64,000 nucleotides of DNA from Pseudovirgaria hyperparasitica (taxonomy: Eukaryota): assembly GCA_010093815.1 (NCBI GenBank), contig ML996576.1. One strand, given 5' to 3'. Positions 3,030 to 49,925 of this stretch are shown piece by piece; position 1 is the stretch's first letter; the number at the start of each line of letters is the position of its first letter. The position numbers and the translations under genes are program-made. Under the pieces are notes generated by a model, which was not told the DNA's origin, did not search any database, and saw nothing but the letters and a program-made list of their open reading frames with translations.

Positions 3030-3062
3030 ATTATTAGTTAAGGGTAGCCCTTAACTAATAAT
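3030..3062. repeat. Shared palindrome copy 1 (ATTATTAGTTAAGGG-tag-CCCTTAACTAATAAT)
   Basis: Perfect 15-bp inverted arms with a 3-nt spacer; just downstream of the Gypsy A extra ORF. Confidence 0.95.
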
Positions 3063-3087
3063 TAGGTAGGTTTTTAGGCGCCTAATC

Positions 3088-6015
3088 TTAGTACTCGAGG
3101 TCGTGAGCCAGCTCCTAAAGAATTATATCGCTTATCTTAGAGAGGTTAGATTCCTCCTTATCGGATAGTTCGTTAGGCCTCTCCTATCTATAGAAGTTCT
3201 CTTCGACGTTATCTAGGCCTACGTCGGACTCGAATTTCTTAAAATTAATTAGCCGCTTAGCGGCGCGCGCCTCGTTAAATTCCTTCTAGAACGACCTATC
3301 CCTATAGACTAGCCTTTCCTACCTTACCATTTTCTTAAAGGTCTCTATGAATACCCTCGAGCCCTCCTTAAACCAGGCGTCTACCTTAGCTTTAAGTTAT
3401 TAAGGACTTATATTAAGCCACGTAGCTGCCTCTTCTTTTATCTCCTAGCTATCCTATCTTTTACGGCCGACTAATGCGTTACTAACGGCGTTAAAACTCG
3501 GGAGTTAAACTACGGCTAGGAAGGCAAAAGGAATCGCGCTATATTTATTAGAAAATCCCGACGGAGACGTGGGTCCTAGAGTTAAATTCCTATAAGCTAC
3601 TACGAGTTATTCCCATATACCTATTTTAGGTACTTCTATTATTATATAATTAGGGCCAATCGCGATATACCATAGAAGTATTATACGTCTTCCACCCTTT
3701 ACGGGACCCTAGGCGCCGTATATTATTAGTAGGCTAGAGATGCGTACTTTAAGGGACTAGTAGGGGACCGGGACGAAGGGACTAAATCGTTTCTTATCGT
3801 CCGTATTATAGATCTTATCATTAATAGCCGTGATTATACCGTTTCGATTAACCCCCTCGCGGAGCTTAGCCTTTAACTACTATTTATTTAAGAACTTATA
3901 GAAGCGGGGAACGATTATAGTATAGTCATTACTTCGTTCGTCGTCAAGACTAATACTCCCCTAGATTATATTAAACCCGTGTCTATCGCTAGGATCGAGG
4001 ATTCGATTAATGGCGTTATCGAGATGCTTAAAACCCGTCTTATCGCCCCTATCCTAGGACTTCGCATAGTATAGGTACGAGATTAGATAGTAGTTAAGAT
4101 CGGGCCGAAGAGTAATATAGGTGAGCTAGTAAAGTAGGCATTACCTAATAAACTATTAGATATAGGAGTGGTATATAGTTCGTAGCCAGCCGTAGTTCGA
4201 TTTCTTATTAAACATACGCTAGTAGTACTTATATATATTAAATTCATCCCTCGCGAGTTCTAGGATACTCTTATTAAGTATAGAGGTCGTCTTTTTAAGT
4301 AGCTCGAAGAGCTCTTTAATGTTAATACTTCTAGTACATTCCCACTCGTCGAAGAGTTATCTACCTATTCTACTATCCTCCTTCTAAATTATAAATGCGA
4401 TACTAGTAAGAATGGTTTTAATATTAATAACTTACTTCGGGGTCTCTAGGGCCTAGTAACGATAGATATCTAATGCCTCTATCGGATAAGGTAGCCGCGC
4501 GTACTTCGCGAACTAGGTATAGCGGTCCTTATAAACTTTAAGGGCCCCTACATTATCTCTAAACTTATATACCATTTTAAGTCTCGCTACTAGGTTTAAG
4601 TAGGACACGCTAACGAGCATATTATTCTTTCTAGCCACGTCTTAGTAATGCTTATAGTAGACATTATATAGAATAGCCATGTTACCTATCTACGCTTTCT
4701 AGCGCACTAGTAGAGCTATTCCCTTAATGCTCGTGAAATTCTTCTTTAATAATATAGCTACCTTAAAAGTCTTCGTCACTAAAGGCGCGTATTAACACTT
4801 CTTAGGCTCGTCCTCTTCCTTAACCGATACTATTATCTTAGGGTATAAACTAAGAATAACCGGGGATTATCGTATAGGCGCCCCTAGTAATTACTAAGGG
4901 CCGGTAGATAAGGTACGTCCGCGAGTAGGTTTTATTAGCGTAGCTATAATAGATACTAAAGAGGTTCTCGCATGGCCCGGTAAGGGATATATACTAGTAG
5001 TAGTAGAAGGAATACTTACTTCAAACGGACGACTAGCTTTAAAGAGATAACGTACTACTAAACTAGGAGGCGTGCTTCGTGGAGGGGACTTTACCATAGG
5101 CGTTACCTACGCTAGTTTTAGCGATGGTAAGGTCTAAGGCGGAGGCGATACACTCATCTCTTTAATTTATAGGTAGTATTTAACGGGCCTATAAACTATT
5201 CTACTTATCCGTGACTATTAACTAGCGGGGATAATAAGTCCCGTCTTATTATAGAACGTTAGTTCATTTTATCGGCTAGGGTAGTTCGAGAGTTACTAGA
5301 GAGATAGACCGTTCTCGTTACTATCGCTAGCTAGGGTAGTATCGATATTAGAGCTCTAAAGATATACCTTAATTCCCCTTCCCTTCTATCCCTAGCCGAT
5401 TCGGGACTATAGAGATACATTTAACTAGTTCCTTACTCTCGCCCATGTCCGTATTCATGAGAGCGCTACTAGCTTTTCTATAAAGTTCTATATTTACTAG
5501 AGCTATCCGAGGGCGGATTAGAGTAACTAGCCGTCGTTATTAGGGAGGTCTTTTCGCTAGTTTTATAGAATTATATTTTTAGCTTTTAGGATGCGGGAGT
5601 TAGTATCTCTTCCACGACGAATTATCTCGTGGACTTCTTTCGGAATAGAGGAGTTAATCTTTACCTTACTATACCCTATTACGGCTCCTACTTCCTAGAA
5701 GAGGTTAACTATACTACTTAAGAGCTATTCTATAAGGCTAGTAATATAAAGGAGATTATTAAACGTGTCTAGAATATAGTCCTATCGCTCTTACGGGTCC
5801 TAGATAGCGATAATTCGGTTAATAGTGGACTTATTTACTTCCGTAGCTTCTATAGCCTATCCGTACGGAGTAGTAGATAGCCTCGATACTATAATAGCCG
5901 TTAATAGCCCTACTTTAGTACTTATAACTCTTAACTAGAACCGCGTCTATCTTATTAGTACTTAACGATCTTATAACTCTTTACGGGTAGGCGTTTTCTT
6001 TTTCGGCGGGGCTAT
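3088..6015 (-). pseudogene. RIP-disrupted accessory ORF of Gypsy A (~975 codons); C-terminal half resembles a PhyH-like 2OG-Fe(II) dioxygenase
   Basis: The segments translated (about 6015-5365 and 4500-3088) share one frame starting (M)APPKKKTPTRKEL; stops are mostly TAG/TAA, explainable as RIPped CAG/CAA/TGG. Motifs: GWLRTIYHSYI**FIR*, ISYLYYAKS, FKHLD (4018-4026), NII*GSISLDDE, TIIVPRFY, IIYGA, RR. End position approximate. Confidence 0.75.
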
Positions 6016-6236
6016 TATTATTATCGGTTCTATTAGCGAGTTACGTTCTAAGAAGAGGTGGTTAAGCGAGGCGGAAGTAGAGGAGAAGGTTTTATTAATT
6101 AAGGAGGTATAGAGAGGTATAAGAGGGAAGAGTTATATACTATCTTAAGTTCTCTTTTATGCCTCCTCGAATGCCGGGTATATAGTAATTTTTATAAATA
6201 ATCCTTACTAACGGCCGTAGGCCCGTATACGTGTCG

Positions 6237-6337
6237 AATCTATAAATAAATATATACTAGGTATATAGGAAATCTATGAATGAATGTGTCTACCGGGTAT
6301 ATAGCAGAATCTATAAATAAATAGATACCGGGTATAT
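6237..6337. repeat. Short degenerate tandem repeats (~35 bp unit, aatctat(a/g)aat(a/g)aat...ccgggtatat) in the pol / accessory-ORF spacer; another 2x26 bp repeat at ~6588-6640
   Basis: Repeated units visible directly. Confidence 0.6.
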
Positions 6338-9300
6338 TCTTATCCTTATAAGACTTCCTATAAGTATCTTTTTCTCCTATACCTTCTTCTTCTTTTCTTC
6401 CTTATTAGTTTCTAATAGGGCCCGTTCTATAGTAACGAAATAGGCCTTTAATAGGTAGGCTTCGATTACACGACCGGCTTTAATATATGGTAGGTGGAAT
6501 TCGCGTAAACGCCATTATATCTTCTTTTAAGCATTACTTACTTTAATAATAAGTTTTATTATTTTATAGTAATAATAGGGTTTATTATCCTCTTTCGATA
6601 ATGGAGTTCATCGTCCTTTTTCGATAATAGAGTTCATTGTTATAAGACTACTTTTATAAGTATCCCTTCCCTCCTTAAAAAAACTTCTATCCCCTAGAAG
6701 GAGATATCGATTCTAGGGAAACGTAAATATTCTTCTCTATTAAAGTCTTGCGGAGTAGGAATTACCACTTCTACCCTAGTTCGTGTAGCGTCGTCGAGGT
6801 ATTCCGTGAGTTATTTATAATAGTTTTCCTTATTACTACTCTCCTTATTTTCCTTAGTAATTCTTCCGATTAGTAGTCGTGAGGGCTCGTCGTAACTCTC
6901 GTTACTTATATTTCTTATAAAATATTTCTTTAACCTATAGCTAGGAAACGTCCCTCTAAGCATGGCTCTATTAAGCTCCGCGAGCTTATAAGTATAATTA
7001 AACACGGACTGGATTCTATATAGCCCCCTCTAATGCTATCTTAGCTTCCGCCCTATATCCTTCTATCGCTACGAGTCGTATAGGAGGATAATTATATTAA
7101 CTAGTAACGACTCTTAACGAAGGTAATAGTCGTTATTCTATGTCTCTCTCGATTCCTTACGCGTTCGTGTCGCGTAGGTATAGGCCTCCTTAAGATCCTC
7201 GGATCTTCTCTTAAGTTATCTAGCTCGAAGAGCGAGTAAGTCGGATATCGATTACACCTCGTCCTAAGGGAGTATTTAGAGCGACTCGAATTCGACTTCA
7301 ATAGGCATGATTAGTTTATGGCCGAGCACGAGGTATACGGTACTATACCCTATACTAGCACGTGTTATTATTCTATCTACCTAGACGACCGTATAGAGGT
7401 AGCCGGGCTAGTTCTTAAATCCGCCATTAGTTATCTTCGCGAGAGTATTAGCGAGTAGTATAAAACTTCTCTCGATAATTCTATTTACTTAGGGATTATA
7501 CGTAGACGTAACCTTCTAATAAATTCTATAGAGTCGGAGGAGCTTCTCTATAGCACCTATATTTTCTCTACTACCGTTATAGATGATTTTAGGAATAATT
7601 CTATATCTATAGATCACGTTCTTAAAGAGGAACTTTACAATGACTATAGACGTAGCCGCCGTACATGCCTCTACCTTAGTCTATCCGCTTAGCTATTCTC
7701 GTATAGATACTACTTTACTATACTCTATAGAAGGTAGTAGCGTCGTTACGTCTAAGTATATTCTTTACTAAAGAATAGGCGTTATAACGTGGTAGAGCCC
7801 TTTATTAAGATCTCCGAGGAGTTTACTTCGTTATTAATATTTATTATAGGTTTTCACGTGCTATCGCACGTCTCTACGTATATCTACCTACTAATACTTA
7901 TCCTTAATCCTTCTAAGGGTCCCTTCGCTATCTCTATAATCTATCTTATCGTGAGTGGCGGTAATTATACACGCCCTAGTATTCGGATCCTTAATTACTC
8001 GTGTATATTAGCGATGCCTATCTCCTCTCCGCTAGAGTATTTAGTTATATATAAGAAGCTTTAGGTAGTCGGTTATAAAGGCCTTATACGCTTGGTTGGT
8101 TAGGTTAGTTAGCCTCTCGAGTGTAGTAAGGTACTTTATAATCCTCTACTATTTATTACTATATTCATCTATTAAGGGAGACTTAATAGCGATATAGTCG
8201 AGTATCCCTATTATATAATCTCTCCCGCTAACGGGCTTAATTAACGACGTCTCTAGTACGTCTATATATAGAGCTATATCCACGAACTCGTCTAGGTTAA
8301 AGGTAGGGACGTCTAGTAGTTCTTCTCCTCCGTATATCCGTAAGATACCGTTAGCGACTACGTTACACTTCCTAGGTACGTGCCTAACTATAAAGTTCTA
8401 TAGCTAAATCCACGCGAGCTACCTAGTAACGAGCGCCCCTAGTAAGTTAGTTACGGTACGGTTAATTTAAGCGACTAGAGTATTTACGTCTATTTCTATA
8501 ATAAAGTACGTGCTATAGAGGTATTACTAGAACTTCTATAACGCGTGGAGGAGGGCTTAGTACTCTAGCTTCACGGTGTCATAGTTTCTCTTAGCTTTTA
8601 ACTATATTCCTCTATTATACTACGATAGCTAATATTTACGATCCTTATTCTCCTATATTAACGTAGCTCCCTACCTAACGTTACTAGAGTCTACTACTAG
8701 GATTATATCTCCTATATCTATCCTATACTATAACGTTATTAGTACGGGAGTAGTAGTTAGAGCTATCTTTAGCGCGTCCATCGAGGTCTACTCCTTAGCT
8801 ATCTACTACTAGGCCGATTTATTCTTTAATAGTATAAATAGCGGCGATGCGATAATAGCGTACCCGGGGATCTATATCCGGAAATATATATAAATGCTAA
8901 GGAAGGCTCGTACATTCGTCGTGTTTTCGTAGGGTTTCTAGTCCCTAATAGTAGTAACCTTTTTATTACTCGGTCGCCTCCCTTTAATGTCGCAGACGTA
9001 TCCTATAACGTTAGCGGCTTTAACACACTACTAAGTCTTCTTACTACTTAGGGCGCATCCGGCGCGCTCTATATCCGCGAGAACCTTATCCACGTTAATT
9101 AAATATTCTAGAATATACCTACGAATTCTAGGTAGGGCCTCCTTAGAGTTATATTTCGTCATGGGTCCTTTAATACCTAAGTCATCTAGGAATGGCAGAG
9201 CCCTCTCCGGGATATATTCTTATATAATAGTTAATATAATCCTAACGAACTAAGCTACTAAATTAGTGGCCCCTTAAGGTAATATTATCCCGTGTAGTAA

Positions 9301-10326
9301 TGCTAGGGGCGTTATAAACCCCGTTAAGTCTCGGTAATGCTCTACTAATAGAATCTAATTATATCCTAAGAAGAAGTCGGTAAACGTTAAGACGGCTATC
9401 CCCGTAAAGTACTCCGAGAACTCTTTATACGAGGGCGGCGTGGCCGTATTATGAATAGTAACTCGGTTGATTTCTATTACCGAATTAATTAACCTATAAT
9501 CTCGTTCCTTATTAGCTTCCTTCTTCTTTTCCATGAGAAAATAGGTATTTTAATAAGGACTACTATAGGGCTCGAGCCTTCTACTATTAAGACGCTCTTT
9601 TAGAATCGTAAGTACCTTCCTATAAAGGGCTCTAGGAATATTAAAGTTCTTAGCCTACTATACCTTATGTTCTACCGTTCGGATCTCCTACGGAGGTGCT
9701 ACCTCTTTATTAAATTTACTAAGGTATAAGAATTCCCATGCTAGTGCTTCCTCGCGATATAATAAGATTATATATAGTAACTTAAGTTCTACGGGACGTA
9801 GCTCCATTCTAATCTTTAGCTAACTTATATATAGAGGCGTTAGACGTGTTCCTAGCGGGATAGTTACCCTTTAAGGCTCTATTAGTCTATTAAACGCGTT
9901 AAGGTCTAGATAGACGGCTAGAAGAAGTACCTACCGTGCGATTACTCGTTTACGCTAGTCTAGATACCCTAATAGATTCCTAGGAACCTTTCGGTGGGCT
10001 TCGGAGTCATCCACGGGGTGTACTTTAACTCCCTTTCTTTTATATATGGTAGCTATACTAAATCCCTTTAATACCCCGGATGAATACCGTCTTTAGAGGC
10101 CGGTAGAGCCTACTATAAGCCGTTCTATTATCGTGCCTTATTTATATATAAAGGTAGCGTACCTTACCGCTATAACTAGAGCGGCTAAGTTATCTTTTCT
10201 CGATAACCGAGTAACATTTTTAGGCCGGATTTTCTCGGAAAGTAACTCTATATAACTTATTTCTATATCCGTATAAAAATATAGCCTATCCCCTTCATTA
10301 GTAGGTTTACCGGACCCTATTTAGTA

Positions 10327-10365
10327 CGGATTATTAGTTAAGGGTAGCCCTTAACTAATAATCCG
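10327..10365. repeat. Shared palindrome copy 2 (18-bp arms), between protease and RT of Gypsy A
   Basis: CGGATTATTAGTTAAGGG-tag-CCCTTAACTAATAATCCG. Confidence 0.95.
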
Positions 10366-13048
10366 GCTTAACTCCGGCTTCCGGCGACATACTCCGCTAT
10401 ATAGTTAGTCTCTAGCTATAGAGTTACCCTCCTTCTCTAAGACTAGAATATACTTATCCGGACTAGTTTCGAAGGTTATATATTCTTATCTATATATAGA
10501 GTAGACTATTAAGAGTACTTACCCGGAGGCTAACCTCTATACTATAAGTAAGGCCTATCTAGTATATAGCTCCCCTAGGATAAGGTTATAATTAAGTTCG
10601 CTATACACGAATATCGAAGTAGCTATAATAATCCGACCTATGCGGATAGGGTATTACTATACTATTCCTACGAATAGAGTACTATACTAAGTAGTACTAA
10701 CTAAACTCGAGTTCTTTATATATAGTAGAAGTAAAGATATTACTAGCCTAAGACGCCTCATAGTATCTAGTCGAATACTATTTACCTATACGCTACTATC
10801 AAATAGTACTATACTAGTCGCCCTTTTAGAACTAACTTCTATAGGGTACCTTAGACACTTAGCTACTAGCCTTACTATCCCTTCCTTAAGCTAATTAATA
10901 TCTTATTACGTAATAGCCGTCCCTATAGTATAGAGGGGTACTAATATATTAACTTTATTTATCTTAGGAGCCATAGTATAGTTATTTCTTCCTTTCTTCT
11001 CGGCTCTCTCTTCTTAAGTCTTATAGACCTCTCTAGCTATAAAGTTAGGGGCGCCCTTCTCAAACACCATATAATATAAGTTACTATTAAGGCTTAATAG
11101 TTTACTAATAGTAATGTTTATAGTTATCTCTAGAACGCGCACTAGCTATACTTCGCTAGCTTCTATACTTAGCCACTATCCTTCGCGTAGATAGTTATTA
11201 AGCTTAACGCCTTAGATATGTACCTTTTAACTAGGATTTAGGCTATCCCCTTTATCTATCTTATCCTCCGGCGCTATTAGCTCTTATTTAGATATTCTCT
11301 AGTCGCTACTCTTCTCGCCGTCCTCCTATTCCTCAATAATCCTTATATACTACCCTTCACGCATTCCGCGGAGGCGGGCGATCTTTCTTTCCTTAGTATA
11401 ATTAGATATACTCTTCATAATCCCCCTTCTAGATATTACAAGTATAGCGGGCTCTTCTAGGGCTATCTCCTTATAGATATATCTATTACTAGCCACGTCG
11501 AAGCGTTCGTAGAATTCTATATATCTATCTTTCTTACTCTCGGGCGATATAACTTCTTCTTCCGAATCGCTATCCGCTAAGGCCTAGTAGGGACCCTTCG
11601 TAGGTTTTATACTAATACTATATACCGGCACTCTCTATAAAGCGTTAATATTTACTATAGACGTAGAAACCTTTACTCCTCCTCCGTACTAGCTTAGACC
11701 GTTTTAAACCGTTACTACGTAGTTCCGGATAGCTTATAGAGTAGCTTATAGCCCTACCGAGGAGGGTAGTAATGGGATTTCTTCTCTGTTCGCCCCGAAA
11801 CGCCCTTAGAATACTCGTACCCCGTTAATATTTAGTAATCCGTCTCTAATATATCCTACTATCTCCGGATATCTATATATTAGGTGATCTCCTCCGTACG
11901 TGATATACACGATCGGTCTTCGAGGTCTATTCTAGGCTATAACGCCTCCTTAGAAGTCTCGGGTAGAGACGTATTCTCTATTCTATGTATAATTCTATGG
12001 ATAAACTTACGTTAGTTCTATGGGCATGCCTCATACTTAGAGATATACTAAAAGATTTAGCCTTCGCGCCTACTAGTTAATAATAGCCGAAAGTAGCTTA
12101 GGTTCGTACTTCTTAAGGGATAGGAATAAGAGATTAGAGGTAAAGTAGGACTTTATCTTAATTAACGTAAGGTCTAGTTTACTAAATCTCTCTACTATCT
12201 CGTTAAACTTATCCGATTCTAGCGCGACGTGTACTACGACTAGAGAGGGGTGGTTAAATTCATTAGTTCTTCTTTCTTCATATAACTACTCTTCTAAGCC
12301 GGTCTTCCTACTCCCTATCTTTAATTTATAGTATATAGCTATGGCTAGCTCTTATACGGCTAAGTACTTATTAATATAAGCTAGTTCCTTAAGTACTCTA
12401 GCCTTTCATAATACAAAGCCATAGATAATTACCTAGTTATAACTATGTACTTCCATCGTGAGTTAACATTTCTCTATAGCCCGAGCCTTAAGACTATTAG
12501 GCAGCCCTTCTAGAAAGAGCTCTATTCGCGAATACAAGCTTAGGCTTCCTTTAGCCATAAGTTTCTCCATAATAATATAATACCAGGAGTAGTACATAGA
12601 GAGAGAGTAGAATGGCTCTACTTTAACCATTTCCACGTATTTTCGGACAAAGTAGATGGTGCCTTCCTCGAGGGCAGAGTTAAATAGAGAGAATTCCTTT
12701 AATAATTCTTCACGTAGCGTGGCCTACTACTATTTCTAAAACCTACTTATTCCTTTAATGGTAGGACGGAGATAGTCCTCGTAGTATAACAGTAGGGAGG
12801 TTATCTTCTTATTAGGCGGAACTTCATAGTTTATATACATGTCCTCGTACTTCCAAAGAAAGACCGTAATGTTTATTCCTTTAAAGCGCTTAGGGGCTAG
12901 GGTAGATAGAGATACTATCCTTCCTTATCGCGCAAATGCTACGAAGAAGTTAAGTATCTCTCTACGAGTTAATAGGTCGTTGTTTTAAGCTCCTATTACA
13001 CCATTACTAGTAGTAGGTGTACTAGTAGAGACGCTGGGGGTAAGGTTA

Positions 13049-13073
13049 TTAGTTAAGGGATTACCTTAACTAA
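13049..13073. repeat. Shared palindrome copy 3 (degenerate), near the gag start of Gypsy A
   Basis: TTAGTTAAGG-gatta-CCTTAACTAA. Confidence 0.8.
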
Positions 13074-13577
13074 AGGTTAGCCCAATGCGTCTACCTATAA
13101 CACCTATCATCCCTTCTCTATATTAACTAATCCCTTTATAAGGTAAACTATTACTATCGTCTTCATCGATATAAGGTTCACAGTATCCTACTTATATTAT
13201 TATCTTCATATAAGGCGTTCCTAAAGTAGTATACTCATATAGCCGTGTTTATAAATAACAGCTATAGTAGCACTAAACAGGTTATATTTATCGTTTTTAA
13301 ACTCTTCTTTACTACTTCATCTAGCCCTATTTTATATCCTATTCCCCTAAGACATTTTCGAGTCGCGCTATCACCCGTATTAGCATACGCATGCTTTTTA
13401 CAGCTACTTTTAAGAGACTAGCCCCTAGTAACTCCAGACTCCCTGTTTTCCGGACTCGTGGCTTCGATCTAGTAAGTCTAGACTACCTTATTAGGCACGC
13501 TATATACTTCCCCTAAGCTAGTTTCGGAGTCCTAATCTCCCCCTATAAGTTTATAGTCCGGGTATAACCTCTAAAAT

Positions 13578-13949
13578 TATGGTAAGCCATCGCCACGTGT
13601 ATTCCTTTTATAAATGGCTATGTTCCTAGTATAGTAGTCGCGACGAACTTATAAGTATCTCTCCTAGGTATTATGAGTTCTCTTTGAACGTACGACTTCT
13701 TATTAGTTCTCTTTTATAATAGGACGGGTCTATATAATACTCTTAATCAATTCTTTAATAGCTAAGCCTAATAATTAATACCTATAGAGGCCCATGAACG
13801 TAAGGAAAGGTCGAATAGTCGAATATTAGTGATGGGGGAAGCGCGCCGAGCAGAATGACCAAGGAAAACGCCCTCCTTAAATATATAATGAAGCCATGTA
13901 ATCGAGCCAGGGACACATACATGTAGGGCTACAGGAGCGGCCTTCCACA
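13578..13949 (-). repeat. 5' LTR of Gypsy A
   Basis: Colinear match to 2512-2883; ends ccttccaca. Confidence 0.93.
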
Positions 13950-16900
13950 CTAGTATAGATACGCTAAGAATTATATAAATTAGTAAAAAGATTTAATAAT
14001 TAGTATAGAACTATATACCTTTAGTATAGAAACTTCTAGATTAGAGCTATCTTCTCTAAATTTATAACTCTTTAGTATATATAAGAAAGAAATCTTAGTC
14101 TTTTCTCTAGAACTATTTCTAGAAATTTTAATATCTCTAGTATATAGAAAGAAGTCTAAAGTAGTAGAGATTTAAGTACTATTATAGAGATTAATATATA
14201 TTAGTAAGAATCTATAATAATTTAAGAAAAATAATATTATTTAGTAATTATAGTAATAATAGCTATAGTAGATTCTACTAAATCTTCGTGGATTATATTA
14301 GAATTATACTTCTAGATATACTTCTTACTATATTTATATAAATTATAGAAAGCCTTTTCTAAGGTATTATAATTAATAGTATTATACTTCTTATTAGTAG
14401 AGATTACTAGAGATCTAGTAGTAATCTATATTAATATAAGTAAATCTATATAAAGTTCTTTAAACTTATTTAAATACCTATAAATAATAATACTTCTTAG
14501 TTATATAAGTACTATATATTATAGATTTAGTACTACTATAAGCGGTATATAATAGAAAGTAATAACTATAATAATATATAGCTAGATTATTAGAGCCCGG
14601 TCTAGGTTAGAGTAGATTAATAGCTTTTAATATATTACTAATATATACTAGATAAGAATTATTTAAAGGCGCTTATTTCCGCACTAATTACTTCTAAGTA
14701 TTAAGATTTTAGAAAACTATATTATAATTATTACTAATTTATATAGATTCTTATAGATTATTATTATTACTAGCTAAATATAGTATAAAAATTAGTAAAT
14801 TATATAAATTATACTAAATTATAGTAAATCTATATAAATCTATATCTATAAGAATTAGATAATATATCTAATAATCTAAAAAACTCTATAAAGAGTTAAG
14901 AAGTTTTTTAAAGAAAGGAATATTTCTAAGAAAAGATTTTAATATAGATAGTATCTAGACTTATTTAATTATATTATATAATACGCTAGGTCTAATTAGA
15001 TAATTCTATCTATATAAGAATTTAGAATAGATAAAATCTAGTTTATTAGAAAAATACTTATATAAATCTTAGATTAGTAAGTATCTATATATATCTAAGA
15101 TAAAGTATAGAGAATAACTAAGGTCTTATAAGACTTAGAATAGAAATATAGAGATAGATAATAATCTAGATTACTAAGAGTAGCTTTCTAAAGAAAGACA
15201 ATAATTATTAGAACTTAGTCTTAGATATAATCTAATCTATATATACCTTAGCTAATATAGTTAGAAGATAGTATATATTAAGGGTAGACTCTAGGTATAC
15301 TTAACGCTAGTATACTACGTCTATGCTACTACTCTCTCCTTACTTAACGAAGCTAAGCAAGCCCCTTTTTAATAGTATACTCTATCTCTTATCTTAAGGA
15401 AGCTAAGTAGACTCTAGCTTTCTCCTTTATTAAACTTACTATATTCTATAAATACTCTTATATCTATATATATATTATATTCCTATAATATTAAGTTTAA
15501 TTCTATTTTACTCTCTAAGTACTTTACTATAGACTTTAGAGATAATATATAGGGTAATACTAGGGGTAAGCTAGACTAAGATCTAGGTCTAAATATAGAG
15601 TTATAAAGCGCTAAAGAGATAATCTTTAATCTACTATAACGCTAGTAAGCTCTTAAATAAGAGATTCTTACTATAAGAAACTAAGCCTTCTAGAATTAAT
15701 TAAGCTCTACTATAAATAAACTACTAAAGTCTCTACTTAAAAAGATAATCTTAACTCTATAAACCGACTAGAAACTATTAGAATCTAGGGACTAGAAACT
15801 ACCCTCCTAGAACGGTAAAGTAGCTACCTTCTAAGACTATCTATTATAGTTATATAGCTTCTATAAGATATAATCCGCGCTTAAGCCGAAGCTATCTCTA
15901 GGTTACTACTAGAATACTATCTATAATACTCTACTAGCGCGTAAGAGAATCTAAATATAATACTTCTAGAAAAGGGGAGACTCTATAAAAGATAAGAACT
16001 CTAAAGTCTTCTTTATATAACTTAAGTATATATTCGCGGATAGTAATAAGAAGGCTAAGGTCTTAGAAAAGCTTTTATTACTTAAATATATAAATAGCTA
16101 ACCTTAGTATAAATACTAACTTAAATTTAATAGACTTCTACTAAGCGCCGGTAGAGATAACTAGAAAGATAGTATAAAAATTAGCTATCTCTAAAATACC
16201 TTCTTAAACCCTACTTATATATATATAGCCTCTATACTAAGAATTATAGACTACTATAGCTTCACAGAAGAGATTAAGAGAATTATAATAAACTTAGAAG
16301 ATACTAAGTAGTTTAAGGTAGCTAATAAGAAGTAGAAAAAGAATATAGTTACTATAATAAAAAGTACGGTAGCTATAAGATTATATAAGTATTATACTAC
16401 GGCTAAAAAGGATAAGAATAGAGATACTATTATAGACTCTATATATATAAGTAGAGACTAGAAGAAAGAATCTAGATTCTACTATAAGATAGAGAAGATA
16501 CCGAAGGTAAAGTAGATTAACTAAATAGAAAGAGATAGACGCTAGAAAGAAGGGCTCTACTTCTATTATAGGGTATCGGGATACTAGATTAAAGGCTACT
16601 TATATACTAACCCCTTCTTAACCTCTAAAAGGATTATAAAGATTAATTAAGTTAAAATTATATCTCTATTAGAGATTAAAGATAATCTTATAGATTCTAG
16701 TAATAAGTACTTAGAAAATATATAACTCTCTCTTAAAGTTAAGAGTAGGGAGTAGAGAATATACTAGTAGATAGATAGACTAAGTTCCGAAGTATAATAG
16801 ATAGAAACCTTATATATATAGATATAGTTCTCTAAAAAGCTATTAGAACTTTTATACTTATTAATAAAGGCTACTAGTACTATACTATAATTTAAGAAGA

Positions 16901-19900
16901 CCTAATAGAAGGTCTAGGACTTCTCTATATAAATTATAGAAAGTATATAATTAAAGGAGTAATAGATGCTATAAATAACTCTAAAATTTATAGAGTTATC
17001 GCGTTTTATATAGAGATAGATAATTATAGATAAGATATCTATACTTATATAGTATCTAACTTAGCCTTCCCGCTTATTCTTAGAAACCCTTAGAAAGTAT
17101 ATAATAAGATATAGACCGCGTCTAATAAGTAATAGTACTACTATAGCTAAGTAAAGTAATAGATAGATAAAGGTCTTAACTACTATAAGCTAGGGACTAT
17201 TAAAGAGTAGATAGACCCTATAAAAGAATATAAGAACTCTAAAGGGGCCCTTATAGTAAACACGGTATCTATAGAGAATATCTATAAGGCGCTAGAGGAG
17301 AAGAAAGAGCTATTACTAGAACAGATATAGAAGATACTACCCCCGTAACTCTAGGCTATAGCTCTACTATTTTCTAAAAGAGAAGTAGATAAACTCACGC
17401 CGTACTAACTAGATATTAATTATAAAATTAAGATATATAAGAAAGTATATAGAATACTAATAGACTTACTATAGAGGTAGCTATTTAGTATAGTAAAGGA
17501 TAAGCTCCTTATACTAGTAAAACTTCTAAGAGACCTTCTAGTAAAAGGGCTAATTTAGTATACTATATTAGAAGCCATAGTCTCTATATTATTTATAAGA
17601 AAGCCTAGCGAAGGACTCTAGTTCTATTATAACTACTACGCCTTAAACGCTATTACTAAGCCTAACTAGTACCCCTTACTACTAATACTAGAGACTCTTT
17701 AAAATCTAATAGACGCTAAATAGTAAACTAAGGTAGATATTATTACCGCCTTCTACTAGATCTATATAGCCTCTAGTTATAAATATAAAACGGCGTTTAG
17801 AACTCGGCTAGAGTCGTTTAAATAGATAGTATATCTATTTAGGTTATTAGAGGCTCTAGTAACCTTCTAATAGTATATTAACTCCTTACTATAAGAATAG
17901 CTAGATAACTTTACTTTAGTCTATATAGATAATATAATTATCTACTTAAATAGATTAAAGGAAGACTACTTTAGTAAAGTATATATTATTCTTTAGAAGC
18001 TCTAGGACGGAGACCTCGACCTAGACCCTAGGAAAAGTAAGTTCGCTTATAAAAAGATTAAGTACCTTAGATTTATTATATATACTAATAGAAAAGGTAT
18101 AGGCCCTAATCTAGAGAAGCTAGAAGTAGTAAAGAACTAGTAGAAGCTAAATACCTAGAAGGAAGTATAACGGTTCCTTAGGTTCTATAACTACTACTAG
18201 ATATTTATTATAAACTATTCTAAGCTAGCTAGGCCTCTTATAGCGCTTACTAGTAAGAATACTCTATTCTTCTAGAGAAAGAATAAGGAAGAGTTATTCC
18301 GGGCTCTAAAGGAGAAGTTCTTAGAGACTCTAGTTATAGTATACTAGAACCCTTATTAGAAGATATTTCTTAAAATAGACTATAGCGGGTTCACGCTTAG
18401 AGAAGTACTACTTTAGAAAAATAAAGGAACTCTTAGACCTATTAGATTTTTCTTATAGAAGCTAAATAAAGTAGAGATTAACTATAATATCTATAATAAG
18501 AAGATACTTACTATAATCTTCTACTTAAAGTTCTAGAACCCTAAGTTAAAAGTATATAGTCTCTTTACTATATAGATAGACTATAAGAATCTTAAATACT
18601 TTATAATAAAGTATTATCTATTAGAATACTAAATATAGTAGTACGAAATATTATCTAAGTACTAGTTCTCTCTAGTTTACTAACTAGAATCTAAAGTAGT
18701 TATCTCTAATACTCTATTAAGATAGAAATAAGATATACTTAGAGTAGATAATAAAGAGTCTAGGTTCCGTAGGTTTCTAGACCCTAAGAATATAAAAGAT
18801 TAGCCGGTCTCTAAGGTAAGACTATTAGTAGTCTATACTATTAACTTACTATTTAAGAATATATTACTAGGGACTAAGTCTATCTATAAAGAGCCGGCTT
18901 CCCTAGAATCTTTCTAGAACTACTCTCTAAATAATCTATAGACTATAATAGTAGAAAAGAACTTAATATACTAAACTATACTCCGTATAGTAATAGAAGA
19001 AGTATAGTTATTTCTAAGTAAGATAAAGCTAAAAGTCTAAGTAGTAGATTATAGTATTAGCTTAGAGGGCTACCTTAACTACTATAGAAAATTATAGATA
19101 CTAGGCGCGAAGGTAACTACGGAAACTAAGTATAAAGTACTAGAGTATAGTAATTTAGAAGGGGACGTTCTTTAGACTAAGCTTATCTAGTTTATATATA
19201 ACTTACTACTCTACGGCTATCTAGACTAAGATTCTACCGCTTCTATACTAGTATAAAGCTTCTACTAGCCGCTATAGATAAGATATATAAGATAGTTTCT
19301 ATAAAATTATAATTACTATAGGCGGAATAAGATATAGTGGAAATAAAAATATAGACTTCTAAAGCCTCTTCTAGTCTCTAATTATTTCTTCTAGAAGATC
19401 TTAATAGACTTTATTACTAATCTACCCGGCTTAGAAGGGAACTACTACTTATAGATTATTAAAGACCGCCTAAGTAAGACTATAGTATTATAAGTAATAT
19501 CTACTATAAAGATAGAGAAATATACTAAGGCGTTTATAGATTACTAGATAAGATACTATAGTATACCCTTAGTAATAATAAGCGATTAAGAAATAAACTA
19601 GACTAGCTATTTCTAGAAGACCTTTTATAGTCTTACTAGAGTAATCTAAAGACTAAGCTCTATATACTATTCTTAAATAGATAGAGATCTAGAGAGAATA
19701 AACTAGAAGGTATAGAGCTACTTACGAAACTTTATTAATTAGAAATAGTTTAATTAGAAAACCTAGCTTCTAACTATATAACTAGTACTAAACGCGCGCT
19801 ACTAAGTAGGGCTAGAAATAAGCCTATTCTTTACTATCTATAGATATAATCTACTATCCTCCGTGTCTCTATAGATAGAAACTAACTCTAGTTTCTTACT

Positions 19901-21473: not shown

Positions 21474-21508
21474 GATTATTAGTTAAGGGCTGCCCTTAAC
21501 TAATAATC
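21474..21508. repeat. Shared palindrome copy 4 (3' UTR of LINE copy 1)
   Basis: GATTATTAGTTAAGGGC-t-GCCCTTAACTAATAATC. Confidence 0.95.
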
Positions 21509-26263: not shown

Positions 26264-26296
26264 TTTATTAGTTAAGGGCTACCCTTAACTAATAAA
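26264..26296. repeat. Shared palindrome copy 5 (immediately upstream of the ORF1 ATG of LINE copy 1)
   Basis: TTTATTAGTTAAGGG-cta-CCCTTAACTAATAAA. Confidence 0.95.
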
Positions 26297-33276: not shown

Positions 33277-33356
33277 TTCGTAATGGATTAATATCTTAGA
33301 CTATAATATATATCTCATATTAAGAAGTCTTTATATTATTTATGGTTCTACTATAT

Positions 33357-34575: not shown

Positions 34576-34839
34576 GTTTCTAGATACAACATTGCGCTTT
34601 TGAGTAGATGGAGGTTGATATGTAGTGACGCAGCGGGTGGCGTCGGCCGAAACACGACATCACGTGTTATATTTTCAGCGGCCATACTTAAGAATTATGT
34701 TGCTCTTGTATGAACGAGACATTCATGACAGTGGTCTATTGAATCAGATCTCAAAGATACTTCTGATACGGCAAATGCTCCAATTACCCTAATCACCCTA
34801 CATCTTCGCCATCTTCCAATTCGCAAACTTGTCTGTAGT

Positions 34840-39133: not shown

Positions 39134-39232
39134 ATCCGTATATCCATAGTTGCATGGGAAAGCTTGGCGCCCAATGCTGCGCTATGTCACCAACACGCGT
39201 TTTTATATGTAATTGACATTTTACAACATTAT
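39134..39232 (+). repeat. Left TIR
   Basis: atccgtatatccatagttgcatgggaaagcttggcgcc...cattat, the inverted copy of 55352-55450. Confidence 0.92.
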
Positions 39233-39336
39233 CGCCGTACTACGCTCGTATAGAGTCTATAACTATATAATATAGTATATAAGAGTTAGTATAGATAATA
39301 TTTAGTATTTTTAACTTACTAATGCGCGCGTATATA

Positions 39337-43400: not shown

Positions 43401-43586
43401 TATATACTAGTAATATTAAAATTCCTAGAAAAGGTTCTAGTAAAAAGGCTAAGATTCCTTTCTTACGTATACTAAAGAGCTATAAAATTAGAGAAGATAG
43501 CTCTAATCTAGAAGTTTCTATACTAAAGATATATAGTTCTATACTAATTATTAAATCTTTTCGCTAATTTATATAATTCTTAGCGT

Positions 43587-43811
43587 NNNNNNNNNNNNNN
43601 NNNNNNNNNNNNNNNNNNNNNNNNNNNNNNNNNNNNNNNNNNNNNNNNNNNNNNNNNNNNNNNNNNNNNNNNNNNNNNNNNNNNNNNNNNNNNNNNNNNN
43701 NNNNNNNNNNNNNNNNNNNNNNNNNNNNNNNNNNNNNNNNNNNNNNNNNNNNNNNNNNNNNNNNNNNNNNNNNNNNNNNNNNNNNNNNNNNNNNNNNNNN
43801 NNNNNNNNNNN
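43587..43811. other. Assembly gap (N run)
   Basis: Run of n. Confidence 1.
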
Positions 43812-45117
43812 AGTTTATATAGATCTATATAGATCTTTATATTTTCTTTTAGCTTTCTTAATTTTATCTTTCTTTAATAATAACTTCTTTAATCTCTTTA
43901 GTAATCTATACTAATCTATACTAATCGGCACCGACTTTTAATATCTATTTCTCTTAGTAAATTATTTTTCTAAGTCTCTTTTTTAGTTAAATTTTTTAAA
44001 GTTCTAAGTTTAAACTTTCTAAGGAAGTTCCTTAATTTCTTAGAATATTTTAAAGATCTATATCTCTTTTACCTTCTTTCTTTTAGACGGCCATTCTTAG
44101 CGCTAAATTATACTAAAAAATATTAAATTACTATACTTTAGTATAATTCTCTACGATTCCGCGGCTTCCTTTACTAATTACTACTTATATACTAATATTA
44201 CTACTTTACTAATATTTATTATAGGTTCCTAAGTATCTTTATTAGAATTATATCCTTTCTAATAAATCTTATATAGCTACGTACTATCTTTGGCGTGTTA
44301 CTAGCTAAGTATCTACTTAACTTTATAGATATCTATACCTTCTTATATAACTACTTTATATAGTATCTATTTAGAATAATCTAGTAACGATAAGGTATGA
44401 AATAGCTTAAGAAGTATAATATAGAATATATTATATATCTTTAATATAGAAGGGAGTTATAACTTATACGCCTAGTTATTAATTATATAAGTAATCTTAT
44501 ATAGATCTACTATTATATAGTTAAGCTTCTTCTTTAGCCTAATATTATAAATATTCTTACTATTTAGTAAAACTTCATCCCTAATATTAAAGATTATAGG
44601 TTTTCTACCCTTATTATAGTACGATTTACTATAATTCGTAGTATCTTATAGTAACTTTATAATACTTCTTTATATTTAGAATAGTTCTATAGTAATTTCT
44701 ATTACTTTAACGTTAGGTCGTTCTACTTTAAACTAAGTCCCTAAGAACTACGCATTATAGTTCTAACTAAAGTTTACTTTAAATAGACTTACGTAGGTTA
44801 ACGTATATCGGCTATTATTATACGGGAATTCCGCGATATAGACTAACCTTACCTAGTTATTCTACTTATAGTTATAATAAAAAAGAACTTCTTACACCCT
44901 AACGGACTAAACTAGTTAATTTAGGGTAAAACAGCGATTTACATACATTAAACGATAGAGTATACCGAGTATAATAACCTCCGATACACGTGCGTACGTG
45001 CAGCGTATAATACGCGACGATACTAACATGTAGAGATACTATATATATACGCTCGAAGACTCTTCGATAACATAAGTATAGACTATATCTAATAAACGCC
45101 GACACGCTAACCCCCTT

Positions 45118-45148
45118 TTATTAGTTAAGGGCTACCCTTAACTAATAA
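45118..45148. repeat. Shared palindrome copy 6 (just upstream of the ORF1 start of LINE copy 2)
   Basis: TTATTAGTTAAGGG-cta-CCCTTAACTAATAA. Confidence 0.95.
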
Positions 45149-48100
45149 CCATAGCGGCCTTAGGCATCGTAATACCCCGGCATACACCGGATATGCCCCT
45201 ACTAGTACGGTAGAAACGGCCATATAGCGACATTAATATAGATAGCTAGATACCTATCTAAAATATAGGAACTAACTAAGGGTGCGAAGCGCTATAGATA
45301 ACCTAGACTAAGAGGACCCTAAGAGGGGAGACCCTCCTAGATAAAATTAAATACTAGGTAACACGTGTAGAGAGGGACGCCGAGGAGGGAAAGAAGACCC
45401 TTCTTTATATATTCCGGGACCTTATCCGGAACCTAAGAGGAACTACGGAGGAAGAAAGGAAGTCGCTATAAGAGGAACCTAGTAGTAGGCTCGACCGAAT
45501 AGAAGCCAGCCTACGGAGAATCTAGGAAGAGCTATTCTAAGGTAAGCGCCCTAACACGTAGGCTTAGATTATAGTAACACCCGGAGCTACCGCACTAAGG
45601 ACCACTAGGACTATAGATAGAGTATATAGTATACGTGTTATAATCTAGAATAAGAACACGCTAGCGTAGGTCTAACGGGTATCCCTAAAGGAAATTATAA
45701 ATAAGATTAATAAATAGAAAGGAATGTGGTCGAGCGTCGTGGCTACTAAAGTTACGCTAGGTAGGGTAGTACTTACTACTATAACGAATACTACGTAGTA
45801 AAACATCTTACGAGATCCGAACGCGATAGGTAGTATCTTCCCTAGCGCGTCTATTAGGGTAGCTATATACCCGATTATAGTACACGTAGTACCCATACGG
45901 GGATAGGCTATCGGAGCGGAGGATATTACGCGTATAGAATAATCTAACACGCGAAAATACCTAGGGATTAAGATTATAAAAGCGTGGTAGAAGAACCTAT
46001 AGGCGATTAAGACGACGGCGAAAAAATACTCTACTATAATTATAGAGCTCCGAGACCCCGCCCTTATATAATATATTATATAGGAGGGATTCCTAATAGA
46101 AGGAGAGCTCCTTATGGCCGAGCCATGGGATAGGGCATAGGTAATAATATAGTGCTTTAACTATTAAGGGTATAGATATACTATATAAAGGTACTTATAG
46201 AAGACTAAGTGCGGATAGTACCGTAGAGACCACGCCATCTAGAAGTGCCCTTATGAACCGCGAGGAGACGGACTAAGAAATAGGGACATAGCATAGTATT
46301 TAAACTACGACGGGAAATACCCGTTATAGTCGTTAACGTACATAAAACGTAAATAGATTATAGAATATATTCGCACGATAAAAGCGAGAGGCGCGAGATA
46401 GTTATAGAATATAACACCTACCACGAGCCCTTTCTTTATAACACCCCTAACCTCCCCTCCGGAAGGTAGTTAGGCGGGATAGTAGACTATCCCGAAGACG
46501 ATAGGACGACTAAAAGGTATAGTTAAAGCCGCTACCGCGTGAGGATAGTCGCGCCTCTAAGGAATAAGTATATAGATATATATACTCCCTAGTATCTAAT
46601 AAGGGACTAGAATATACTCCGAATTATATAGATAAACATATAATATAAAAGAGAGAACTAGGCGACGCTCCTTAAAGAGACCGGGGCTATAATACTCGCT
46701 ATCTAGGAACCCTATAAACACTACTAGACGAGTAAACCAACCACACACCCCAGATACCACACTATACACCCTCTAGGACTAGAAAGATAAGTTCTCTTCC
46801 ACATTTATAGATTAATACTACTCTTATTATAGTCGTATACCGAGCGCGATAACCTTAGGATAATACTATACCTATAAATAGATATAGGCCCCCTATATAT
46901 ATATAACATATATAACTAATAATATATACTTATACTAGACGAGATACTCGAGGGTACCATAGAACTAGGGTAACATATCCTCCTAGGAGACTTTAACCTC
47001 CACCACCGATAGTAGAGAGGCCTAGCCGTGGTTAGAGAAGAACTTAGAGTAAGGGAACTACACACCCGCTACCACGACTTCCTATACCTACTCACACCTA
47101 TAGAATAAGTTATATAGAAAAAACATAAATAGAACGAAGACGGGTCTATGCTTAACCTTACCTTCGCTATAGAGTATATTAGTTACCGGATCTAATACTA
47201 CCGCCTAGGCTAGGTATAGACGGATTCCGACCACGAATACATGGAAACTATAATAAACGTGTATACCCCGAATAAATAACGGGGATAATAGATATAGAAG
47301 GACACTAACTAGGAAAAGTATCTAAAGGACCTAGAATCGGCGATTCTAGATCCCTCTATAGTTAATGTATCTAACGACCTAGCCATAGACTAGGCCGTAT
47401 AGACACTCCTATAAATATACTAGAATACGAGAAATAAACACGTACTATACTAAATATACCGGTCCCCGGAAGTAAAGGGGATTCCTTAAGTACGGGAAAG
47501 TAGATAAGACGCCCGAAGGCTATATAGACGCGTATACTATATAAGAACACCCGAGTTATAGAAAGAATAGAAGGAAGTAATATAATAACGCGATAAAGTT
47601 CTCCGTAACGAAAGGCGTAAATAGTAGCGTATAATTACTAGTTAATAGACACGATACGTAATAGGGCTATAGCGCATGGCGAAATAGGCCAAGGGCGTAG
47701 ACACTCCGACACCCCCGCCACTTATACCTCCCCTAATATATTAGGGGAGAACATACTCTACGGGCCTTAAGAAAACTAAGGCCCTACGGGAGGCTATATT
47801 CTCTCTCCCGGAACTAGTAGACCTATTAGACGTTCACGGCGCCGAATATCTACACGTAGTAGATATCCCTAAAGAAGTTACGGAGGAGGATATACTTAAT
47901 ATTATTAAGATACTCCTAAATAATAAAGCACCCGGACTAGATAGAATTCTAAATCGATGCCTAAAAAGTACTATAAAAGTGACCCTACCGCTTATTACTC
48001 GTATATTCTAAGTATACGTCACGTAGGGGTACCACCCCTAGAGCTTCCGAGTCGCCTATACTATTATACTCCCGAAGCTAGAAAAGAGCCCTAACTCTCT

Positions 48101-49894
48101 AAAGGAATAGAGACTAATCGCCCTTCTCTCCTACCTAGATAAGATACTAGAGGCTACGATAGCGAAGAAGATAAGCACCGCGGCATAGGAATATAATCTC
48201 CTCTCTCCGAACTAGAAGGTAAAGGTAGATAGCTCCCTAATAATAGCTATCTAATATATTATTAAAGTCGTCTAGGCCGCATAGAAATAGAGACGGGTAG
48301 TATCGCTCCTCTCCCTCGATATGGCCGGAGCGTTTAATAAGGTAAACTATATAAGACTTATTTATAACCTCCGGATAAGACGAATACCAGAATAGATTAC
48401 ACGCTTTATATAGTTATTCCTTATAGGAAGAACAACTTAGATATATATCCCTAGGTACTAGAGCGAATATAAAGAGACGGTATACGGCATCCTATAAGGG
48501 AGCACTATCTCTCTAATCCTATTCCTCTTCTTTATAGTAGACCTTCTTTAAGGAATAAAGTATATAGAGGTAGTCGGATACGCCGATAATATATATCTTC
48601 TAGCCATTAATAATAATACTAACCGAACGTGTAGACGACTAGAATAGGACTATAAGAGGTACCTCTAGTAGGTAAAACGCCATAGAGTAAAGTTCGCCCT
48701 AGAGAAATACTAGCTTATGCACTTCATTAATCGTTAAGAGAAATAGATAACTAGGGAAGGCGAACGACGCCTCTAAATCGACGTATTTAATGAACTACTA
48801 GTATAAAGCATACGCGTGCTCGGAGTCATACTAGATAGTAAGCTTAAATAGGGACTATAAGTAGCATACGCCGTCTCTAGGGCCCTCTAGATAGAAGCCG
48901 CTATACGACGGATTATAGCCTCTATATAGAGAACTACCCGGGATAAGGCACGCTAGCTATATATATCTATAGTACGACCCGCCTTCACGTACGGATATAA
49001 GTGCTAGTACACGGCCCTTATATAGACTAGGCGAATAAAGCTCGAATCCATATAGAACCGTATACTCTATCTCATATTAGGCGTATATAAAGCTACTAAT
49101 ACGGTACTACTACGACGCGAGATAGACGTTATAAGTATATATAACTTCTACTAGATATAGAGGGTGGTATACTTTACTAAATAATAAGTATAGAAACGTA
49201 TAGAAAATGTAGAATATACTTTCGCCGCGCTACGTGTACGAATTAGTATATATTACCGCGTACTCCTATATATAGGCCGGAATTAAATACGGTATAGATG
49301 CTTAATAGAAGCCGACTCTAGCTAAGTAGTATAAGAAGTCCGAGATAACCCGGACGCTCTTCTAGACTAGTAGAGCCTTTAAGAACTCGTGAAAAACATA
49401 CGGTTATAGACTTAAGATAAGTAGAAAGAGGCACTCCGTGCCTACTAGACCTTCTAGTAGGATAGGTACCTAGAGTAGATTCGAGGGCCATAGAAGGAAC
49501 CGAGTAAATAGATGTATAAAGGGCTAACGAAAGCCTAAGCATCTATACTTATCTAAGCCCGAACGGGCGCCATGGGACTCCTATACTACATCTATAAGAG
49601 AGGCGTTCCTAATACCTCTCTATGGTATAAGGCGTACGGCCGGAGAGGTATAATACGCCACTATCTAGCTATATACCCTAACCTCTATATATAACGGTAA
49701 TGGCTTATCCACGTTACGAAGACTTTAGATATCGTATAATAGCTTAATAAGTACTCTAAGGACGTCTCCCGATAGATACTTATATATCTACTACTCCTCT
49801 AGTACTAGTAGACCCGGAAATATATACTAGAAGAGACCCGGTATACGCCGGTAGTAACCCGATATATACCGGAAGAACCCCAGGAGAACCCCGA

Positions 49895-49925
49895 TTATTA
49901 GTTAAGGGCAGCCCTTAACTAATAA
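49895..49925. repeat. Shared palindrome copy 7 (3' UTR of LINE copy 2)
   Basis: TTATTAGTTAAGGGC-a-GCCCTTAACTAATAA. Confidence 0.95.

Follow-up and report, generated by a model that had tools for sequence, protein, structure and literature searches.

This report concerns a 64-kb stretch of Pseudovirgaria hyperparasitica DNA (64,000 nucleotides of contig ML996576.1, assembly GCA_010093815.1; called the window in the following) and a short palindrome that recurs in it at seven sites. All seven copies (7/7) sit in two unrelated families of retroelements, namely the long terminal repeat (LTR) element Gypsy A and a long interspersed nuclear element (LINE) that is represented by two copies, LINE1 and LINE2. 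The palindrome is real, and it is explained neither by repeat-induced point mutation (RIP) nor by chance; its function is unproven. The elements and the palindrome copies are listed here, with open reading frame abbreviated as ORF, reverse transcriptase as RT and untranslated region as UTR.

2510-13875, minus strand: Gypsy A, 11.4 kb, heavily RIP-mutated, with LTRs at 2510-2809 and 13576-13875 that are 300 bp long and 94% alike.
21230-26512, minus strand: LINE1, with an ORF1 that contains zinc knuckles (read by eye) and an ORF2 with RT.
44897-50166, plus strand: LINE2, with ~73% identity to LINE1 in a nearly gap-free alignment, RVT_1 and a (TAT)7 tail.
3031-3061, no strand: palindrome copy G1, centre TAG on the plus strand; in Gypsy A, 222 nt upstream (in the sense of the element) of the 3' LTR and past the last long open frame.
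10331-10361, no strand: palindrome copy G2, centre TAG on the plus strand; in Gypsy A, ~90 codons ahead of the first motif that is conserved in the RT ORF (YKRK..KV.PVD).
13046-13076, no strand: decayed palindrome copy G3, with 10-nt arms and a 5-nt centre; in Gypsy A, ~500 nt past the 5' LTR, which places it in the 5' UTR or at the gag start.
21476-21506, no strand: 3' UTR palindrome of LINE1, centre CAG in the sense of the element; the palindrome is 35 bp long.
26265-26295, no strand: 5' palindrome of LINE1, located 2 nt before the ATG of ORF1; read in the sense of the element, its centre is TAG.
45118-45148, no strand: 5' palindrome of LINE2, 221 nt from the 5' end and 2 nt before the start codon of ORF1, which is now ATA; centre CTA, flipped relative to LINE1.
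49895-49925, no strand: 3' UTR palindrome of LINE2, centre CAG, ~240 nt before the (TAT)n tail and within the longest exact match of LINE1 and LINE2 (34 nt).

The repeat-rich part of the window also contains runs of N, i.e., assembly gaps, at 1601-2005, 2389-2398 and 43587-43811.

The 31-mer, TTATTAGTTAAGGG-NNN-CCCTTAACTAATAA, is present in six exact copies, which start at positions 3031, 10331, 21476, 26265, 45118 and 49895. The pattern search tolerated up to three mismatches, and all six matches had none, at a mean chance expectation of 0.00 in 100 dinucleotide-preserving shuffles. The seventh copy (13046-13076) is decayed: the left arm is whole and most of the right arm is kept, the centre is GGGATTACC instead of GGGCWGCCC, and the final three bases are AGG instead of TAA. 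The original prediction had counted seven occurrences, as were found here, and had placed them at the right sites, with start coordinates that are 0 to 4 nt off. It had described two arms around three free bases; this pattern matches, but the actual symmetry is that of 15-nt arms about a single centre base (GGGC-W-GCCC). The centre triplets of the six exact copies are, in order, TAG, TAG, CTG, CTA, CTA and CAG, that is CAG/CTG with a RIP-type transition in four of the six. The two copies with a GCWGC centre free of RIP mutation are both 3' UTR copies of the LINEs, despite near-saturated RIP at TCAG, TCAA and GCAG in the three elements (2810-13575, 21230-26512 and 44897-50166).

Searches with a single arm and with the 19-mer core revealed no further copy in the 64-kb window, which agrees with the earlier statement that the motif was seen in no other element or gene. 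Sixteen matches to the single arm were found with up to two mismatches. Thirteen of them belong to the seven copies, and the three others have two mismatches, compared to 2.59 expected by chance. The core had one extra match, with three mismatches, against 0.36 expected. Non-trivial perfect palindromes, defined by arms of at least 10 nt with at least three G+C per arm, number 12 in the window, and 7 of them belong to this family. At some copies the palindrome happens to run on into the flanks, to 39 bp at G2 (10327-10365) and to 35 bp at the 3' UTR copy of LINE1. At G2 the flanks add 4 bp on each side (CGGA...TCCG), and without the 31-mer they would close up into an 8-bp palindrome, CGGATCCG; either the 31-mer entered a small palindrome, or the palindrome grew outward.

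For a comparison of the surroundings, 120-nt flanks were read outward from every copy and all pairs were aligned locally. The four orthologous pairs of LINE1 and LINE2 scored 36-68, and all other pairs scored 17 or less, compared to a maximum of 16 for shuffled flanks. Only the 31-mer is common to both families, and its borders are sharp in five unrelated contexts. It had been claimed before that the flanks are non-homologous between the two classes, and this is borne out by the scores. It had also been pointed out that target-site duplications (TSDs) of the motif's own, or flank homology left by a sequence transfer, would speak against a shared function; neither was found in the window. No direct repeat lies beside the 31-mer in any of the five contexts, though a TA or TTAA duplication could be hidden inside the palindrome. 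The window contains neither separated arms nor a longer element with these termini, as judged by the single-arm search and by the 25 longest inverted repeats, out of 337 within 4 kb. The terminal inverted repeats (TIRs) of miniature inverted-repeat transposable elements, or MITEs, exist here in a trivial sense, as the whole unit consists of two 15-nt inverted arms. The footprint of an excised transposon was considered and rejected, because there are no flanking duplications and the same 31 bases recur in five contexts. Since the flanks are unrelated and the borders exact, we infer that the 31-mer probably reached each of the two families in one piece, through insertion or capture rather than through gradual convergence.

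The two LINEs are inverted relative to each other, and both end in a (TAT)n tail; RVT_1 was found in LINE2 with a Pfam E-value of 6.9e-13. Each LINE was predicted to carry one palindrome at the ORF1 start and one in the 3' UTR, and this is what was found. The first lies 221 nt from the 5' end, 2 nt ahead of the start codon of ORF1 (ATG in LINE1, ATA in LINE2), the second ~240 nt before the tail, and in the nearly gap-free alignment neither palindrome is shifted by even one nucleotide between LINE1 and LINE2. The 3' UTR palindrome is immediately preceded by 2.5 repeats of a 21-nt unit (GAAGAACCCGATATACACCG-like), at 49830-49880 and in the corresponding part of LINE1, and ~15 nt downstream of the palindrome a CACGTG is conserved in both LINEs.

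LINE1 and LINE2 differ by 1007 transitions and 397 transversions at 5178 aligned sites (19% and 7.7%, respectively). The transversions are distributed over the three codon positions as 52/24/122 in ORF2 (chi-square p 1.7e-17) and 24/20/47 in ORF1 (p 9e-4), and their rate at third positions is ~13%. This accumulation at third codon positions indicates that the two lineages diverged while they were still coding, and that LINE1 and LINE2 do not go back to a single insertion from which both have since decayed. They are thus members of two subfamilies whose diversification preceded RIP and took place while they were active. Counted on the sense strand, 149 A/C differences are opposed by only 50 G/T differences, a strand asymmetry for which we have no explanation.

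Against this background of divergence, the arms of both palindromes are identical between LINE1 and LINE2 at 56 of 56 positions. Zero transversions in these 56 sites compare with 7.7-13% elsewhere in the LINEs, and variation is confined to the centre base, which the two 5' copies carry in opposite orientation. The longest exact run of the whole alignment (34 nt) contains the 3' palindrome, and only 6 of 5261 windows of 31 nt are free of any difference, four of which fall on the 3' UTR palindrome, as judged by run lengths. Outside of the palindromes, 151 of 575 UTR sites differ (26%). 15-mers that lack CpA and TpG and contain 4-5 G+C, like the arms, are identical between the LINEs in only 4-6% of the cases (27/433 and 20/538). 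A trinucleotide-context model yielded a probability of 1.4-2.5e-4 per palindrome that all 28 arm sites are identical when all sites were used, and of ~1e-5 when it was based on UTRs and third positions; with the UTR transversions alone (~11%) the probability for both palindromes jointly is ~1.5e-3. The original prediction had asked for conservation in other species; within the window, conservation is seen across diverged LINE lineages. At the level of the sequence, the alignment demonstrates that the palindrome was in place at both sites before the two still-coding lineages split. It remained unchanged while UTRs and third codon positions diverged, which argues that selection on the sequence itself kept it, and purifying selection on the palindrome in the LINE would be the simplest reading. 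Two other routes to identity were judged unlikely, namely that a 31-bp island was homogenised between non-homologous flanks, and that each lineage received an insertion of its own at one and the same nucleotide.

The influence of RIP on the elements is evident from the tetranucleotide counts. On both strands together, TCAG/TCAA occur 0/7 times in Gypsy A, 1/2 times in LINE1 and 0/0 times in LINE2, and TTAG/TTAA occur 188/298, 71/80 and 77/82 times, respectively; the counts in the gene-bearing 8 kb are 73/103 for TCAG/TCAA versus 29/12 for TTAG/TTAA. The arms of the palindrome are devoid of CpA and TpG, so that RIP cannot alter them further. As TCAG and TCAA have almost disappeared from the elements, the TpA steps in the arms may be RIP products. 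This makes the pre-RIP form that had been proposed for the motif plausible, but it is unproven. The contrary view, that the TpA steps in the arms are native, had been derived from a two-copy estimator of RIP (f ~0.64 at CpA) and was withdrawn, because the estimator is badly biased, being blind to sites that are mutated in both copies.

In Gypsy A, the minus-strand frame that starts at 13599 contains RNase H (E 1.5e-9) and, by homology, RT. Pfam gave no protease for Gypsy A, and the protease upstream of G2 was read by eye only. The pol region is followed by a long extra frame (3062-6633, minus strand); this putative "dioxygenase" cargo matched no Pfam family in any frame at E <=0.05 or in its main frame at E <=10. 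The element assignments that had been made originally are thus partly confirmed: Gypsy LTRs, RT/RNase H and the RVT_1 of the LINE were found, whereas the protease had no Pfam match and the dioxygenase label had none even at E <=10. The idea that the palindrome is linked to the dioxygenase cargo received no support, since the cargo ORF is without Pfam match. The more general proposal, a cis-acting system shared by both classes, does find support in a discrete unit that is present in two unrelated families and constrained in the LINE. Nothing in the window favours the "strategic" placement that had been proposed over placement at any point where a retroelement puts up with 31 additional bases.

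No copy of the palindrome is present in the LTRs of Gypsy A. G2 is readable in only one stop-poor frame, which is the pol frame, and G2 and G3 both lie in the frame of the main ORF, the sole frame of the palindrome that would have been open before RIP (chance 1 in 9). Mapping of ORFs by TGA codons alone is uninformative in Gypsy A, because TGA itself is depleted. Before RIP, G2 may have been coding (IISQGLPLT..) or a spacer between two ORFs, and G3 may likewise have been translated or carry native stops. A HMMER search with the stretch from protease to RT retrieved 447 proteins at E <=0.001; among the best 150 of these 447 relatives, no best stretch starts before query residue 238, and the palindrome (~residues 180-190) is not covered. 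Of eight relatives examined, six consist of RT, RNase H and integrase and have no protease, with N-termini that fall at query residues ~156-238 when projected; a protease is present in the other two (2/8). These N-termini are compatible with an ORF boundary near G2, though the gene models may be truncated. A word-based search with 110 residues around G2 found no relative.

Beyond the assembly, contigs from two DNA runs of one sample, both of which contain the region, were aligned to positions 7001-27000 at >=80% likeness, with totals of 38,933 and 14,056 pieces. Contig depths, which are summed over contigs and are not copy numbers, are far higher for Gypsy A and the LINE than for the stretch between them, indicating that both families are highly repeated in the sample. 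At a loose end after 21508 the palindrome is joined to a flank of the G1 type, which means that at least one further copy of Gypsy A carries the palindrome. Among the indels between contigs, the 12 rows listed out of 16 were all of 1 nt and none was at a palindrome; this is weak evidence, as contigs break at repeats. A joint from 21469 to 26265 might have been taken for a LINE that was deleted between its two palindromes, but its shorter side consists of 25 letters inside the palindrome and represents aligner ambiguity.

A RIP-degenerate 25-nt pattern of the palindrome matched five loci in metagenomes and one locus in prokaryote genomes, all of them bacterial, and none in viral contigs. The matches comprise a perfect 25-nt palindrome inside RecG (L003:382-406, with the same gene in L004, L005 and L006) and inside LepA (L002:4-28), plus one intergenic near-palindrome. 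The RecG and LepA sequences stem from candidate-phylum bacteria, L006 being a Candidatus Nomurabacteria metagenome-assembled genome. In both genes the palindrome is read in its only open frame (..SQGLPLT..), and two of the contigs stop there or close by. Its appearance is that of a short palindromic insertion that keeps the frame in these candidate-phylum bacteria. A relationship to the fungal palindrome was considered and rejected: the centre pair differs, the number of matches is roughly at chance level given the excess of palindromes in genomes, and the likeness to the de-RIPped arms is probably due to chance. Literature searches on palindromes together with RIP, retrotransposons and LINEs, and on the motif itself, returned no report of such a shared palindrome among the matches listed, and those listed for the motif itself concerned neither transposable elements nor RIP.

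How could the palindrome act? The interpretation that we favour, tentatively and with somewhat less than even confidence, is that the 31-mer is a discrete self-complementary cis-acting module, which is kept by selection in the LINE, was acquired as a unit by both families and acts mainly in RNA. Each element contains at least two copies, placed toward the two transcript ends, in transcribed parts that either do not code for protein or can accommodate an insert (5' UTR or ORF start, inter-domain stretch, 3' UTR). The predicted hairpins have energies of -14.4 to -26.4 kcal/mol and z-scores of -3.3 to -8.2, and 0 of 200 shuffles were as stable. In the RNA, each copy would fold into a hairpin of 14-18 bp. 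As the palindrome is its own complement, pairing of up to 31 nt is possible between any two copies. Within one transcript, a duplex of the 5' and 3' copies could lead to cyclisation, and two transcripts paired through their palindromes would form a dimer. The complementarity that is expected of cyclisation or dimer sequences is present, because self-complementary 31-mers occur in the 5' and 3' parts of both LINEs and of Gypsy A; the conservation in active lineages that is likewise expected was found for the LINE only. The strict identity, without any compensated or wobble change, suggests a sequence-specific partner. Such a shared partner, which might also read the palindrome, could be a protein of the host or of the elements, or the other copies themselves. 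The sole possible compensatory change is from C-G to A-T at the inner pair of the decayed copy G3.

Several observations weigh against a role in RNA pairing. The hairpins and the long-range pairing are predictions. RNA stems normally tolerate G-U changes; the arms show zero variation and no G-U change, which fits exact-sequence recognition, e.g., on DNA, at least as well. Therefore, a reader of the exact sequence, at the level of protein or DNA, is nearly as likely as RNA pairing. The centres of the 5' and 3' copies are inconsistent: pairing would have extended over 31/31 nt in LINE2 before RIP, but there is an A-A mismatch in LINE1 and a U-U mismatch between G2 and G1 of Gypsy A. No LINE is known that needs cyclisation or dimers. 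The conservation test involves two LINE copies only, and the 3' palindrome sits in a generally conserved block of 100 nt with 92% identity, so that its conservation may in part be that of a larger element of the 3' UTR. Selection has been demonstrated for the LINE only; Gypsy A is present once, and its 5' copy has decayed. Lastly, the entry of a 31-nt unit into five sites with exact borders is left unexplained.

Two explanations can be largely put aside. Palindromes at orthologous positions of two LINEs that are 27% diverged, RIP-type changes in the centres, and the joining of the palindrome to element flanks in independent contigs of the runs make the chances of an artefact, be it a palindromic library linker or an assembly error, practically negligible, even though the window contains N gaps and some mate-pair linkers are perfect palindromes. 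It is also very improbable that there is no constraint at all and that the identity of the arms reflects a lack of RIP targets plus chance. Such an explanation could draw on the absence of CpA and TpG from the arms, on RIP near saturation at TCAG/TCAA, and on the fact that only the CWG centre shows RIP-type change (4/6 copies). However, comparable RIP-proof 15-mers are identical in only 4-6%, and the context model gives ~2e-4 per palindrome. Moreover, transversions, which are not made by RIP, reach 7.7% overall and ~13% at third positions, yet none was found in the 56 arm sites.

Two further alternatives were considered. The palindrome could be an operator at the DNA level, i.e., the site for a dimeric sequence-specific protein of the host or of an element, for example a domesticated transposase or a transcription factor, that acts on transcription, chromatin or integration of both families, with one arm per subunit and an uncontacted centre. 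This would account well for 28-30 strictly conserved arm positions without wobble or compensated change, and for a perfect symmetry in which only the exact centre is free, flipping between A and T; a common trans factor would also simply explain why the same sequence is found in two unrelated families. CACGTG is linked to transcription factors, and the conserved CACGTG that follows the 3' UTR copy at ~15 nt in either LINE fits in. We nevertheless regard an operator as rather unlikely. Thirty conserved base pairs are long for a transcription factor site, no candidate protein was identified, no copy is found in the LTR or upstream region, where the promoters of LTR elements sit, and sites in 3' UTRs and between domains have no obvious transcriptional logic. 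We place still less weight on a selfish micro-palindrome, a mobile, MITE-like unit of 31 bp consisting only of TIRs that inserted independently in master copies, survived where it was tolerated and was multiplied passively, without a role for its host elements. Its survivorship would mimic a "strategic" placement, and exact borders in five unrelated contexts, a palindromic structure like that of two abutted terminal repeats, a centre orientation that varies between copies, and sites that are all non-coding or in the one frame that could have been open before RIP (G2 and G3; chance 1 in 9) are what one would expect of it. A passive hitch-hiker should not, however, be far better conserved than neutral sequence, as the inherited LINE copies are. 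In addition, no copy has a TSD, none is found outside of the two families in 64 kb with other repeats and genes, no longer element with these termini is present in the window, and 31 bp is well below the size of any MITE that we are aware of.

The proposed action in RNA can be extended to a bolder scenario, which we consider improbable. The module may have been exchanged between LTR and non-LTR families and kept because all copies can pair with each other. It would then not only cyclise or dimerise transcripts, but even join LINE and Gypsy RNAs for co-packaging, template switching and the swapping of bracketed segments (gag-protease, RT to cargo, or the whole coding part of the LINE). It would represent a cross-class recombination or packaging signal that arose from a mobile palindrome smaller than any known MITE.

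If the palindrome is functional, it would point to a common dependency of two major repeat families of this genome, either on a host factor or on RNA-RNA pairing, and it offers a compact handle on how fungal LINEs use their UTRs. If it is a hitch-hiking micro-insertion instead, it is still an unusually small mobile unit.

A close comparison is offered by Ty1, an LTR retrotransposon of yeast. The sections of PMC4974528 on CYC5:CYC3 and PAL describe short sequences, complementary or palindromic, of the 5' region and the 3' UTR; they pair inside one genome or between two, and reverse transcription or packaging depends on them. As in these Ty1 sequences, to the extent that they are covered there, and in the dimer-initiation hairpins of retroviruses, the copies described here lie near both transcript ends, are self-complementary and, in the LINE, are conserved under selection. 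Unlike the Ty1 sequences so described, the same 31-mer constitutes both partners, is present two to three times per element and is common to a non-LTR element; its pairing is a prediction. The CYC and PAL sequences of Ty1 are also shorter and family-specific. We know of no LINE that dimerises or cyclises.

Other parallels concern the recognition of RNA structures. The constitutive transport element of simian type D retroviruses and the NXF1-binding element in the 3' UTR of human L1 are RNA elements for host factors. They resemble the present case in that the UTRs of unrelated retroelements contain an RNA site, structured and in part symmetric, for one host protein, but they are longer, imperfect and not identical between families, in contrast to the base-identical and sharply bounded palindrome. 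"Stringent" LINEs have stem-loops in their 3' UTRs that are recognised by their own RT and are shared with short interspersed nuclear elements (SINEs) as partners. The 3' copy of the palindrome is likewise a conserved hairpin in the 3' UTR of a LINE, at most a few hundred nt from the tail repeat; however, the stem-loops of stringent LINEs are not duplicated in the 5' UTR, and they are shared with SINEs and not with an LTR element.

Short mobile palindromes form a third group. Human MADE1 is an 80-bp palindromic MITE that consists only of TIRs, and the Rickettsia palindromic elements are in-frame palindromic insertions. With these the palindrome has in common that a short unit with exact borders occurs in unrelated contexts and has one potentially open frame. 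In contrast to MITEs of the MADE1 type, it is far shorter with its 31 bp, has no TSD, no autonomous partner and no copies outside of two families in the window, and its inherited copies are conserved instead of decaying. The mobile G+C clusters and palindromes of fungal mitochondrial DNA are similar in being small palindromic G+C cores in A+T-rich fungal DNA, but they are variable, and the palindrome described here lies in nuclear DNA, does not vary and is found in retroelements only. Single families of retroelements are known to harbour cis-acting palindromes and hairpins; what appears to be new, judged by the literature matches listed, is an identical, sharply bounded module that is common to an LTR element and a LINE and was conserved as the LINE diversified.

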